A stretch of 64,000 nucleotides of DNA from Anolis carolinensis (lineage: Eukaryota): the NCBI RefSeq assembly GCF_035594765.1, contig NC_085845.1:192898897-192962896 (forward strand), written 5' to 3'. Positions 46,581 through 51,676 of this stretch are shown piece after piece. The notes beneath the pieces are model-generated. The model was not told the origin of the DNA and did not search any database. It saw only the letters and a program-made list of their open reading frames with translations. The position numbers and the translations under genes are program-made. Numbering within the stretch: position 1 is the stretch's first letter; the number at the start of each line of letters is the position of its first letter.

Positions 46581-49185
46581 AAGGCACCAATATTACAGAT
46601 GCCAACAATTTATTTATTTATGTATGTATTTATGTATTGTATGGACAAGTATTCAATGCCACTGCACTTTTGCACAAATCCCAAAGCAATATGTAACAAT
46701 GCCACAGAACAATAGAAAAATCCAATACAAAAGTATACTGATAAGGGGAGGGGAACCATTGAATGCTGCCTTTATTGGACTTTATTAAAAATGGCTCAGC
46801 TTACAACCATGGCAAGTAGTCCACTTGTCATATGGCCAGTTTTGCAGTGAAAATGCTGATTCCAGCCATTAATCAGCACAAAGGGAACCACTAGTTACTC
46901 AATTCCAGAGTGACCCTGATGTTTTTGGGTATGGATAGCTGGATTGAACAGACTCACCAGTATATAGCTGGTTAGAAAGCTGATGAAATGGCCGGGTGCC
47001 CTTTTGTGACCTCATCAGAAATGTCCCAAAGCGCATACACATACAGTGTAATCATACATTGCCATCCGACCCTCAGTTTACACATGATCATTGAGCAGAA
47101 TGGTATCATTTTCCCATCCAGCCTTCTCTCCTAAATCTTTACATGAGGCCTTGATATCCATGGTGTTTGATATTCCCATAGATACCAAAATCCATTGATT
47201 CTCAAGCCCCATGATATACAATGGCATTGTAATATGATGTCCTTCATATCAAATGATAAAATCAAGGCTTACCTTTTGGATTTTTTAAAATATATATTTT
47301 CAAAGAATAGTTGGTTGACTCCATGGATACAGAGTCCATAAATATGGGCAGCCAACTATAGCTATAGCTAGTTTGGGTCATTTTAATTAAATTTCAAGGC
47401 GGGCTCTGAAGTAAGTAAGAAGGACTGGAGGAGGGAACAAACTGGTCATAACCAAAGAAAATGAAAGGTGACAAGTATGAGCCCTGTGGCAATATGTGTG
47501 TAAAAGTACAGCTTCAGTTGCCAGGGTGGGGTAAGAAAAACATGAAGGAATCGTGGTGGACCTTAGAGTCTAATAAGCTTTACTTGGCATAGGATTTAAT
47601 AGAGTATTGATTAATCAGTCTGTGGTCAGCATAAGGTTACGCCAAGTTAAACTTGTTAGTCTTTAAAGTGCCACAAGTGTCTATTTTATGGTTTCGGGTA
47701 TACTTTAAAAACTAACAAAAGACTACTCACAAAGTAGCCTGATGGTAGACAAAATATTCTAAATGGAGAGATACACAAAAGACACAACAAAACCAAACCG
47801 ATGCCATATAATTGTCATTAGTTCATGGTTCCTAGGGAGTTAGGATTTGTAGTTTGATGTTGTATCTTGAAGTAGCTACTAGAGTATCTCTAGTGATCTA
47901 GATGAGGAAGGCTCTAGACTAGAGATCTTAAGCAAAGTATTCTAAGTTCCTGGCCAAACTATAAATCTCAAGTTTCCATGGGATTATACCATAGCAGTTA
48001 ATGTGATGTCAACATGCTATCACTTTGTATTTTATATATATGTCAACATTTCAATTTTTTCCACCCTCATAGGAAGTGCTGTCAAGGAACTATCACTATG
48101 GGTGTAGGGAGGGGGGATGTTTTCTAATTGTATCCCAATAAACAAAAAATAAAGGAGAGTTACTAACAATGAGGATGGGCTCTTATTTCTTCGTAAAAGT
48201 CCTTCAGTGAAAACATATGCTCTCTGTTCAGAATGCAGAAAAAAGGAATTGTATTGCATTGTTCCCTTTGGTGCACTAGGGTGTAAATCACATCAGGTGA
48301 CACCAGTGATACCAAAATGAGTGTCTATAAAATTTCAGAAGAAATTTATTATTTTCAAAATACGTTTTAAAAATAAAAGTAGATATAATCCATAATGTTT
48401 TCATAAGCGCAGCTTACATGTACCGTTATCAATCAATATATCTAAACTCTAGGCTAATTTCCTTTTTGAGCTTTCTAATGTGCTCTGGTCAGAGCTGTAA
48501 TTATTATCCAGTTTTAAGATCACATGGTTTTGTCTGCAAATGTGCTTCACTGCTACTGGCATTTTATAGTTGTGGATTTTTTCAATTTGTCTGGTATTTT
48601 AGCTACAGTATTGTGGTATGGCCTGGTATGGGAAAAGCACATTGGGATGACCCCATGACTTGCCACACCCGATGACACCGACTTAGGGGCTGCCATTGTG
48701 CTAGAGCCTGCCAGACGTTTGTAGGAGCCTCTGTTTCATATCTGCATATCTAATAAATCTCTCCGCCTATCCACATGCTATGAAAGAATGCATCTCCTTC
48801 TCACTGCTAGAGAAGTCATATGAGAGGCAACCCTCAAATTCCTCAAGTAGCTGAGGTAAATAATTTAGCCTCTGTTGTAACTAGCATGCCTTTGAACACT
48901 TAGACTCCTATATTAGGCTCTGTTGCTTTGCTGTGTGCTTCTCCTCTTTTGTTTTCTTTCTCCATCATGGTTCTACAGTGTGGACTCTGGAATTCCTTCC
49001 TATCAAACCTTATCTATTTCAGATGTTCTCAGAGTTCATTAAAACATAACAGCTCTGTTTCCCATTCATGATGACCTTCTGTTGAATTACATAGTGAATT
49101 ATATAATGGGTTTGTGGTATCTGCTGGGTTTTGGTTCTAGAACCTGCCGTGGATACCAAAATCCATGGACATTCAAGTTCTATTA

Positions 49186-49508
49186 CAGTAGAGTCTCACT
49201 TACCCAACACTCACTTATCCAACGTTCTGGATTATCCAATGCATTTTTGTAGTCAATGTTTTCAAAGCATTGTGATATTTTGGTACTAAATTCGTAAATA
49301 CAGTAATTACTACATAGCATTAATGTGTGATGAACTACTTTTTCTGTTAAATTTGTTGTATAACATGATGTTTTGGTGCTTAATTTGTAAAATCATAACC
49401 TATTTTGATGTTTAAGAGGCTTTTTCTTTATCTCTCCTTATTATCCAACATATTCACTTATCCAACGTTCTGCTGGCCCGTTTATGTTGGATAAGTGAGA
49501 CTCTACTG
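49186..49508. mobile_element. Mariner-type MITE inside an older Tigger-like element (~49100-49630)
   Basis: TIRs and TA TSD. Confidence 0.88.
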
Positions 49509-49664
49509 TACATACAGTAACCTAATAAAATGCTTTCCCTTCTATGGAAAGCTTGTTTTTTGGTAATTTGTTTTGTGGAATATTTTGAAGCCATGAGTGG
49601 TTGAATCAATGGATGATTGAATCTGTGACCCTTTATTTATTTCATGTCAAAAGCATTGCATAAT

Positions 49665-50518
49665 TGTGATGTCTCATGGGCCTTGTAGTCCCGTTCCTAG
49701 TACTATTGTGGCAGATGAGGAGGAAAACATGGGATTTCCACCGGTTCAGCCTGAATCGGAGCCCCTGCACCTGCAGGATATTTGCCCTCAAGAAGTCAGC
49801 CAAACAAGCCTTGGGCAGAATTCTCCCCCGTTTTCTCGAAGAGACAATTATAATAGAGATAGAGGAAATAGGGAGGCGAATCGCCGGAGCGCCAGAATCG
49901 CAGCCAAACAATTAGCTGATTAGGTTTGCTTCCCTTGGGAAATTCTAAGGAGTCATGCATCTGGACAAAGTTGGGTTTCTCTTCTAGTTCTCCAGGGAAA
50001 GTGTTTTTCTGGCGGGAAACGAGACCCTATTTAGGTGTTTTGCCGCGAAGGAAACCTTGCGGAGTCAACTCGTCAGCTTGAGGAGTGAGATCGTGTGTGG
50101 ACTACGCAACTCCAGTTCCTTGTTTCCAGGACCAAGTTCCAAGCCTGCCTTGTTCCCCGAACCTCGCCACGGACCTTGTTCTTGCTTCTTGTTGCCTCGT
50201 ATCAAGTCTTGTTTGCCAAGAATCTAGTTTGTTTTCCAGCCTTGTTGTCAAGCTCCAACGGACTAAAGGACCTTGTCATTTCCCCACACTTTGTTTGGCA
50301 AAGTGTGTGTTTCGGTTATTGGATTATAACTTTACACTTTAATATCACATATTGGACATTAATTTCCTGGGCTAATTTTGACCTTTCCTGAAAGGTCTAC
50401 TTCTGAACTATATTCTTCACTTGTTTTTATTGACTTTATATATTCCTTTAATAAAGATATTAGATAGAATCTGGCCTCTGCGCATGGTTATTGGTGCTCT
50501 GTAGCCTGGGTCCTGACA
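49665..50518 (+). mobile_element. Solo LTR, Gypsy-type (854 bp)
   Basis: TG...CA ends (TGTGATG / CCTGACA); 5-bp TSD ATAAT at 49660-49664 and 50519-50523; AATAAA at 50450-50455; many intact CpGs. Confidence 0.88.
49669..49923 (+). CDS. LTR-encoded 84-aa ORF with an acidic N-terminus and C-terminal RRSARIAAK motif (hypothetical)
   Basis: Uninterrupted from the LTR's 5' edge to TAG at 49921-49923; motif resembles HMGN RRSARLSAK; no evidence of expression. Confidence 0.4.
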   Translation: MSHGPCSPVPSTIVADEEENMGFPPVQPESEPLHLQDICPQEVSQTSLGQNSPPFSRRDNYNRDRGNREANRRSARIAAKQLAD

Positions 50519-51676
50519 ATAATAAATAAATTTAAAAGTGATGAAATAAAGGAAATCACAAGCAGCTAAATAGTTTTAGACCAAAAACGAGCAACAGCGA
50601 CCGCATTGTCCGTAGCTTTAAACAACTCCTCCTCCGTACATGAGGCAGGGCATTGTGGGCAAGCATACTTATGCGGAGTTGTTTGTTCTGCTCCACAGTC
50701 ACACAAGGTGGAGGATTCCTCCAGGTAGTGCCACCTTGCCAAGTTGTCTTTAGATCTGCCCACTCCACTTCTGAGTCTATTTAGGGACTTCCAAGTTGCC
50801 CATTCTTGGTTTGCCCCTGAAGGAGGACCCAGGGTTTGGGTCAGGTTTGGCTGCCCAGAGAGATACTCTTGCTGTTGCTGGAGAAACATCAAGAGGAGTG
50901 GTGGCCCTTCATACCTATTGAATCCATGGGTACAGAGGGCCAACTGTACAAGCTTTAAAGTCTTGGGCTGTTTTGAAGCACACACAGTAAATAAACTTAG
51001 GACCCCATCATGTTGAGATCCTTAAGCTTGAGGACAGTAAGGGAATTCATTGGGCAGTGGGGGAAGCCATCCTTAAGTGCCTAGCATCATCCCTTTCCCC
51101 GTCACATGGAGGAAACTGTCACTGCCCGGCTTCCCCCATGCTGTCCCTGGCTTAGCTAATGAGAACATGGATAGCTGTTCTCAGGGCTCCATCCTACAAG
51201 GCTGCCAGGATGAAGCCCTGCCAGAAGTAGCCTTGTGATGGGCTCTGTCCTGGATACATCCTGGCAGCATCCTAGGCCAGAGCTCAAGCCCCATGCAATG
51301 AGGTCCTATGTCTCATTCTTCTTTCAGTTTAGTCGAAAACACAATTTCACACTATATGTGTGTGTGTGTGGCAGAGGGGAGGGGAGAGACATAAAGCACC
51401 ATAGATCTAACCTCACATGTAGGTTAAAAGGAAATTGCCCATAGCTGTGCATTTTAATCGTTTGTTGTGGCTACTTTTTCAATCCCTCACTGAAAAAACA
51501 GCTATAACTGTACTAAAAAGTAAACACATGGGATCTGAGGGCAGTATTTTGTGGGTAAATATGCATTTTGAATGTACCTTTTGATTTCAACCACCTTTCT
51601 TTTTCCCATTCCCCCCCCCCACCCCATTTCTTCCATTGCAATTGTTCCCTATTGTTTTATTGTGCTCTCTCATTTA

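Follow-up and report, generated by a model that had tools for sequence, protein, structure and literature searches.

Little is known about the way in which vertebrate LTR retrotransposons reach chromatin, and a solo LTR in the genome of Anolis carolinensis raises the question in a concrete form. The LTR lies in a stretch of 64,000 nucleotides (contig NC_085845.1, positions 192,898,897 to 192,962,896 of the forward strand; hereafter the window, numbered from its first letter) and contains a frame, open from the edge of the LTR, whose translation ends in a motif resembling the nucleosome-binding motif of HMGN proteins. Does this LTR encode a small protein of its own, or is the frame the end of a longer one, and what would such an end do?

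The LTR in the window and its open frame

The 854-bp LTR (49665-50518, plus strand) has the termini TGTGAT and CTGACA, and because ATAAT flanks both of its edges it is a solo LTR. Its frame (49666-49923) offers GTG 49666 and ATG 49669 as possible starts, runs for 85 open codons and stops at TAG 49921-49923; the translation terminates in RRSARIAAKQLAD. The features of the LTR are as follows.

49660-49664, no strand: left target-site duplication ATAAT (sequence)
49665-50518, plus: 854-bp solo LTR from a Gypsy chromovirus of the Tf1/sushi type (full-length genome matches; the same LTR borders elements L031 and L032)
49666-49923, plus: last 85 codons and stop of pol, within U3, encoding P0001 residues 1162-1246 of the integrase tail that follows the chromodomain (continuity of the pol frame)
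49714-49737, plus: acidic DEEENMGF block of moderate conservation (pN/pS 0.21, nine motif-blind representatives)
49822-49842, plus: SPPFxR[RK] block at a constant distance ahead of the motif (gap-free alignment of 15 tails; pN/pS 0.36)
49882-49908, plus: RRSARIAAK, an HMGN/Dot5-like motif and predicted acidic-patch anchor (pN/pS 0.10; likeness to Dot5; complex model)
50027-50035, plus: TATA-like box (CTATTTAGG), about 25-32 nt 5' of the putative RNA start (AT-rich box at the same spacing in 18 representatives; putative function)
50059-50068, plus: GCGGAGTCAA, putative 5' end of the element RNA and self-primer (10-nt complement of the sequence that follows the 5' LTR)
50450-50455, plus: AATAAA polyadenylation signal (sequence)
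50519-50523, no strand: right target-site duplication ATAAT (sequence)

An earlier note on this DNA, made from the letters alone, had described a solo LTR with an ATAAT duplication, a frame open from GTG 49666 or ATG 49669 to TAG 49923, an acidic N-terminal half followed by a basic end, and the RRSARIAAK motif at 49882-49908. The sequence bears out this description, the net charge of the 85-residue tail being -8 over residues 1-51 and +5 over residues 52-85. RRSxR[IL] is present once across the six frames of the window, and when the last 34 residues were shuffled 200,000 times it appeared in 0.19% of the shuffles (RRSAR[IL] in 0.03%).

The LTR is inserted in an AT-rich, tail-like stretch beside a minus-strand frame of 151 codons (50519-51021) that contains a Cys/His knuckle and that we take to resemble the end of an RTE/Vingi-type LINE ORF, and contig joints that omit the LTR suggest that insertion-free copies of this neighboring LINE-like repeat exist. 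An interspersed repeat of 300 bp at 49184-49510, whose ends (TACAGTAGAGTCTCACTTA...) are inverted and of which the window has several copies, looks like a non-autonomous DNA transposon.

The frame is the C-terminal end of a chromoviral Pol

A first look through the 1.85-Gb Anolis genome gives 6495 candidate copies of the LTR, and all 40 that were scored are full length with 95-100% identity. Paired LTRs bound elements of 6175 and 6159 bp, which are flanked by the 5-bp duplications GAAGG and CCCAT and show 10 and 6 mismatches between their LTRs. These full-length elements hold gag and pol, with pol in a frame other than that of gag, and the pol frames of L031 and L032 (1246 and 1241 codons) both finish in the U3 tail. 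Pfam domains follow the order PR, RT, RH, IN, SH3, Chromo. The chromodomain (PF00385, Pol 1087-1135; E 2.3e-9, 37.5 bits against a cut-off of 25.1) has three aromatic cage positions, judged by eye, which we take to map to the HP1 cage. Pol extends 111 residues beyond it, 85 of them within the LTR: the frame crosses the polypurine tract (PPT), a Ser codon AG/T straddles the LTR border, and the stop is the same as that of the frame in the window. The exact PPT-LTR junction pattern has 4474 matches in the genome, compared to 2 for a control. In the first 30 PPT loci, taken blind to the motif, the chromodomain, the PPT and RRSxRI[AI]A[KR] share one open frame in 29, the thirtieth having lost the tail end. 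These loci and the two complete pol frames confirm what the earlier note had offered as a fallback, namely that the frame is the end of a longer ORF which crosses the PPT and continues into the 3' LTR. What had looked like a "small protein" consists of the final 85 residues of Pol and is not a stand-alone gene, and the parallel drawn with U3 genes of the nef/sag type fails, as the ORF is not separate from pol.

The 10-nt complement of GCGGAGTCAA lies directly at the 5' LTR junctions, several of these junctions being overlapping loci of the same copies; junctions of the 5' LTR end with this self-primer complement number 4019, compared to 0 for a control, and no TGG start of a tRNA-type primer binding site was seen behind the 5' LTR at the junctions examined. 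The basis for reading the LTR sequence as the 5' end of the RNA is the self-priming mechanism of Tf1 (PMC7175516). With TG..CA LTRs, a 5-bp duplication, gag-pol order, a chromodomain and self-priming, the element is a Tf1/sushi-group chromovirus, an assignment based on these features. The 100 of the 4474 PPT-LTR junctions that were listed are scattered over 32.5 Mb of C1, at 3.1 per Mb compared to a genome mean of 2.4 per Mb.

Several variants of the family were encountered. The L065-L076 subfamily is very young, since P0003 matches all 38 scored places at 100% identity along its 1212 aa, and carries the motif RRSARIIAK. At L033/L034 (G000:C1:329152200-329164400), a family member is nested in opposite orientation in another member. 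The older and distant family L137-L156 has an LTR start TGTTATA and the motif RRSQRLAAK; in 5 of 17 readable copies the fifth codon of the motif, which is a CpG site, reads TGA. No full-length L113-family element was present among the 17 readable of 20 loci, so that the connection of this family to a chromodomain is putative. P0004 was considered as a tail-less form and rejected: L187, a locus found with an amphisbaenian query and similar to P0004 behind the chromodomain, has the tail with RRSARIAAK in frame, but behind a stop.

Expression of the frame from the solo LTR

Given the self-primer at 50059-50068 and the spacing of the TATA-like box, the 5' end of the element RNA likely lies near 50059, which would place the frame wholly in U3 and upstream of the start of the element itself. 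It is thus very improbable that the solo LTR makes the frame as an independent, intact small protein from ATG 49669, as the earlier note had proposed. The frame is intact in the window LTR and in 19 of 20 solos of its subfamily, but young copies would be intact in any case, and in the older L113 family the frame or motif is gone in 10 of the 17 placeable copies (20 fetched). The ATG itself belongs to the TGTGATG terminus of the LTR and is missing in the L107 and L113 types, which retain the motif. Among singleton changes, the nonsynonymous share is 0.59 in 20 solos (p 0.16), 0.68 in 30 LTRs (p 0.65) and 0.65 in 17 old copies (p 0.12), compared to an expected 0.73-0.75, with few events and low power; private changes in solo copies therefore look neutral and fit decay without selection. 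Because the singleton changes are neutral, the pN/pS of 0.26 between nearest-neighbor pairs of young solos is read as differences inherited from selected source lineages. In favor of a small protein, three automated Anolis gene models terminate in the LTR tail (P0005, P0030 and P0045: a cation-transporting ATPase, LOC107983085 X2 and an RT-domain protein), and these may be annotation chimeras or real exonization. On the reading of the frame as a Pol end, the solo LTR in the window would hold it with no promoter of its own upstream, silent unless a host transcript reads in.

Selection on the tail and its terminal motif

We compared 18 single copies as subfamily representatives, with tail nucleotide identity down to 60%. 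Nine were chosen blind to the motif and nine were picked by it; the latter cannot show conservation, and all representatives, including the motif-blind ones, are related and hence not independent events. Within the motif-blind nine, pN/pS is 0.10 for the RRSxRIAAK motif (pN 0.07, pS 0.72), compared to 0.44 for the whole tail. The DEEENMGF and SPPFxRR blocks have 0.21 and 0.36, and the linker and the spacer 0.48 and 0.70, respectively. R1, R2, S3 and R5 are invariant in this set with two to four codons each, and I6 is also invariant with several codons; Ser3 and Ile/Leu6 are kept in all 18 representatives (9 of 9 motif-blind). In one subfamily the second residue of the motif is Ser (RSSARL). 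The last 34 residues of 15 tails, the distant L113 type included, align without gaps, whereas the acidic linker is long and of variable length (85-102 codons). Degenerate motif patterns, which also allow Ser at the Arg positions, match 11,915 sites in the Ile version (0 in the control) and 645 in the Leu version (4 in the control), and all 30 Leu-version loci that were inspected are LTR tails of sister families. Nucleotide gaps in pairwise alignments have lengths that are multiples of three in 437 of 1175 cases in the tail and 731 of 3586 in the rest, a difference in the expected direction that is not relied upon since the aligner splits gaps.

Judged by these substitution rates, the terminal motif is under protein-level purifying selection in the mobile lineage, and is the most strongly constrained part of the tail. 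The avoidance of stops relative to other frames, put forward earlier as a check, is borne out, with one stop in the pol frame over all 18 representatives compared to 2-5 and 6-13 per copy in the other plus frames. The expectation that sister copies keep the frame and motif holds across subfamilies, as the low pN/pS of the motif indicates; the private changes of solo copies look neutral. The motif is part of U3 and stands some 120 bp 5' of the TATA-like box, where its DNA might be conserved as an enhancer or RNA element with the protein likeness as a by-product. This is hardly credible: synonymous sites are more diverged in the motif than anywhere else in the tail, and the same residues are encoded by many codon strings, so that the constraint is on the protein and not on the DNA.

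Predicted docking of the motif on the nucleosome acidic patch

The closest likeness of the motif is to the yeast protein Dot5, whose motif RRSARIAT binds nucleosomes via R6, R7 and R10 and loses binding upon acidic-patch mutation (PMC13347269, partial text). The RRSARIAA of the element is identical to it at 7 of 8 positions and to the HMGN consensus (RRSARLSA) at 6 of 8. By cryo-EM, the RRSSR of Dsup and the RRSAR of HMGN2 sit on H2A E56/E61/E64/D90/E92 and H2B Q47/E113, and AlphaFold 3 modeled HMGN2 poorly (PMC12487698, partial text).

We modeled the last 34 residues of the tail with the host's own H2A and H2B. The complex scored 0.84, compared to 0.02 for the best of three controls, which were not Arg-rich, with a run agreement of at least 63% of contacts and a partner pLDDT of at least 58. 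Among microbial pairs, 51 of 78 with a solved structure and 2 of 108 mismatched ones attain the mark; among eukaryotic pairs these counts are 39 of 65 and 2 of 126. Peptides lie outside of this calibration, and the model may carry a memory of solved HMGN and Dsup complexes. The contacts with the least error join R22, R23, S24, R26 and I27 to H2A E61, E64 and L65 and to H2B Q47, V48, E105, L106 and H109 (converted mature numbering), and the modeled contacts of RRSARI are close to those of Dsup. H2A D90 is paired with K30, the last lysine of the motif, and not with the anchor arginine R26, and E92 is absent from the listed contacts. In this model the motif likely docks on the H2A-H2B acidic patch as a predicted HMGN-type arginine anchor. 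The acidic-patch reading of the earlier note thus survives for the motif, for which selection, the near identity with Dot5 and the complex model speak, but not in its form as a stand-alone peptide.

The likeness to HMGN proteins shows no sign of descent from HMGN genes. No Pfam family, the HMGN profile included, matched the 85-residue tail at E<=1, the 34-position tail profile had no match among PDB sequences at E<=10, and the ESM Atlas gave no usable match for the tail; with no trace of HMGN-gene ancestry, the similarity is presumably convergent. No precedent for an HMGN-like motif in a retrotransposon was found among the titles and abstract openings of the openly accessible literature searched, and the partial text of one review of acidic-patch binding contains no occurrence of 'retrotransposon' (PMC9040877).

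Tails of related chromoviruses

A profile of chromodomain plus tail found R[RS]SxR[IL] in one of its best 150 representatives, an Anolis LTR fragment; chimeric gene models and cellular proteins with chromodomains make up many of the 150. The tail-only profile found nine proteins, all from Anolis. In relatives from Rhineura, Salvator, Podarcis, Vipera and Crotalus, an acidic sequence follows a similar DS/DG-V junction, and the viper, lacertid and amphisbaenian tails are acidic and then basic, with ends unlike the motif: the Rhineura tail has the basic words KRGRP..LRPKR and the viper tails have RKRRRH-type ends. AT-hook-like RGRP words occur in 9 of the 150, and these include cellular proteins with several chromodomains. 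Long read-through of pol seems common to squamate chromoviruses, and the HMGN-like end is so far specific to anoles, although absence outside Anolis is weak evidence since transposon proteins are poorly represented in collections. Conservation of the motif in related families, which the earlier note had made a point of, is found in the sister families within Anolis, whereas viper, lacertid and amphisbaenian relatives have other ends.

Other tails were seen in the same searches. The viper chromoviruses P0069, P0107, P0179 and P0180 have in common a long acidic tail whose conserved end is rich in Arg and Gln and helix-like, so that another basic terminus occupies this slot. Tails of the fish-type P0051, P0090 and P0100 run shortly past a G-rich junction and end in SPEY, and two of them carry RPxGRPRR, presumably an AT-hook-like word. 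A Rhineura tail ending in KRGRPVSLRPKR and an unlabeled chromovirus ending in RRSKRVTN (P0040 and P0021) are possible further arginine-anchor-like ends behind chromodomains.

That other basic ends fill the same slot in vipers, in Rhineura and in proteins with RGRP words, and that the motif was confined to Anolis among the best 150 representatives and in the tail profile, would fit a nuclear localization signal or a generic basic DNA-binding end of the integrase, with the HMGN likeness incidental. We consider this unlikely, as a function of charge alone needs neither Ser3 nor the hydrophobic Ile/Leu6, both invariant in the 18 representatives, and the match to the tested acidic-patch motif of Dot5 and the placement of the motif on the acidic patch in the model also argue against it.

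A proposed role for the tail

The frame is probably best understood as the C-terminal tail, encoded in U3, of the Pol/integrase that an Anolis chromovirus of the Tf1/sushi type makes; it is passively copied into every LTR, and its conserved RRSxR[IL]AAK end would dock the integrase on the acidic patch. Pol would be processed so that the integrase retains the chromodomain, the acidic linker and the motif, and the motif would act as an arginine anchor of the HMGN/Dsup/Dot5 type on the H2A-H2B patch. Together, chromodomain and motif may tether the integration complex to chromatin, the job done in foamy virus by the arginine anchor of Gag. On the best reading, the integrase has two likely readers of chromatin, its chromodomain and an HMGN-type arginine anchor. 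Since U3 is copied to both ends of the element, the cassette is a passive passenger of each LTR, solo ones included.

The motif could also bind the acidic patch and yet work mainly in trans, if surplus Pol/integrase, a tail released by cleavage or a product of splicing competed with host patch binders and loosened the silencing of the element. This appears quite improbable, as Pol is generally made in small amounts and its frame differs from that of gag, even if the length and variability of the acidic linker could permit cleavage. No spliced form appeared in contigs of four presumed RNA runs, which pile up on the repeat and so could not reveal one, nor the start, strand, level or locus of a transcript. 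The tail is moreover fused to the integrase right after the targeting domain, which is the usual site of integration-targeting modules (PMC3059260, partial text). The precedents in its favor are that overexpressed Dot5 disrupts telomeric and mating-locus silencing via its motif and that Dsup raises Ty expression in yeast (PMC13347269, partial text). A bolder proposal extends the preferred reading of an integrase anchor: the Anolis lineage would have independently evolved an LTR-borne HMGN-type anchor and with it the first bivalent retrotransposon integrase (methyl-lysine cage and acidic patch), and the tail would also act, in trans or via host read-through of some of about 12,000 copies, as a silencing-loosening HMGN mimic, or be exapted into host proteins. 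We regard it as distinctly doubtful.

The location of the pol tail in U3 accounts for an open, exon-ready frame in thousands of lizard LTRs. If the tail binds, tethering to the acidic patch would be extended from viruses to retrotransposons, and a mobile element would join the cases of convergence on the HMGN motif; without such binding, it is an ordinary read-through of pol into the LTR. Proteins of yeast, tardigrades and humans point to the likely partner of the motif, which makes binding testable with a 34-residue peptide.

Comparison with known systems

The element shares with the Tf1/sushi chromoviruses (GyDB V-clade: Sushi-ichi, Amn-ichi/ni/san; PMC6317226, partial text) the common Gypsy domain order, a C-terminal chromodomain, self-priming in place of a tRNA primer binding site, TG..CA LTRs and a 5-bp duplication; LTR end motifs of Sushi have also been described (PMC3601003, partial text). 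It differs in that Pol runs so far past the chromodomain and mostly within the LTR, to an HMGN-like end, whereas fish-type relatives have only short read-through tails. An integrase end encoded in the LTR is also found in the plant CRM elements of group A, in which the CR motif replaces the chromodomain and whose partner was unidentified as of 2011 (PMC3059260, partial text). The Anolis element has both a chromodomain and a tail motif, and is dispersed along the stretch of listed junctions. CRM group A is concentrated at centromeres.

The Anolis tail has the RRSxR[IL] core, with its three essential arginines, in common with Dot5 (RRSARIAT), tardigrade Dsup (RRSSRLTS) and HMGN (RRSARLSA), and is modeled on the same H2A/H2B surface. 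Its position at the C-terminus of a retrotransposon polyprotein sets it apart from them, and its acidic-patch binding is a prediction. HMGN proteins, moreover, are small stand-alone chromatin proteins with their own gene, whereas the Anolis frame is the end of pol. The nef and MMTV sag genes overlap U3 as separate genes with their own mRNA; the Anolis tail resembles them in coding within U3, but as the in-frame end of pol and not as a separate ORF. Arginine anchors on the acidic patch are also known from the chromatin-binding sequence of prototype foamy virus Gag, from KSHV LANA and from HCMV IE1, and the anchor of foamy virus Gag steers integration sites (PMC9040877, PMC12125541; partial texts of both). 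In these viruses the anchor has another sequence and sits on Gag or on a viral nuclear protein, whereas the predicted anchor of the Anolis element sits on the integrase, beside the chromodomain.
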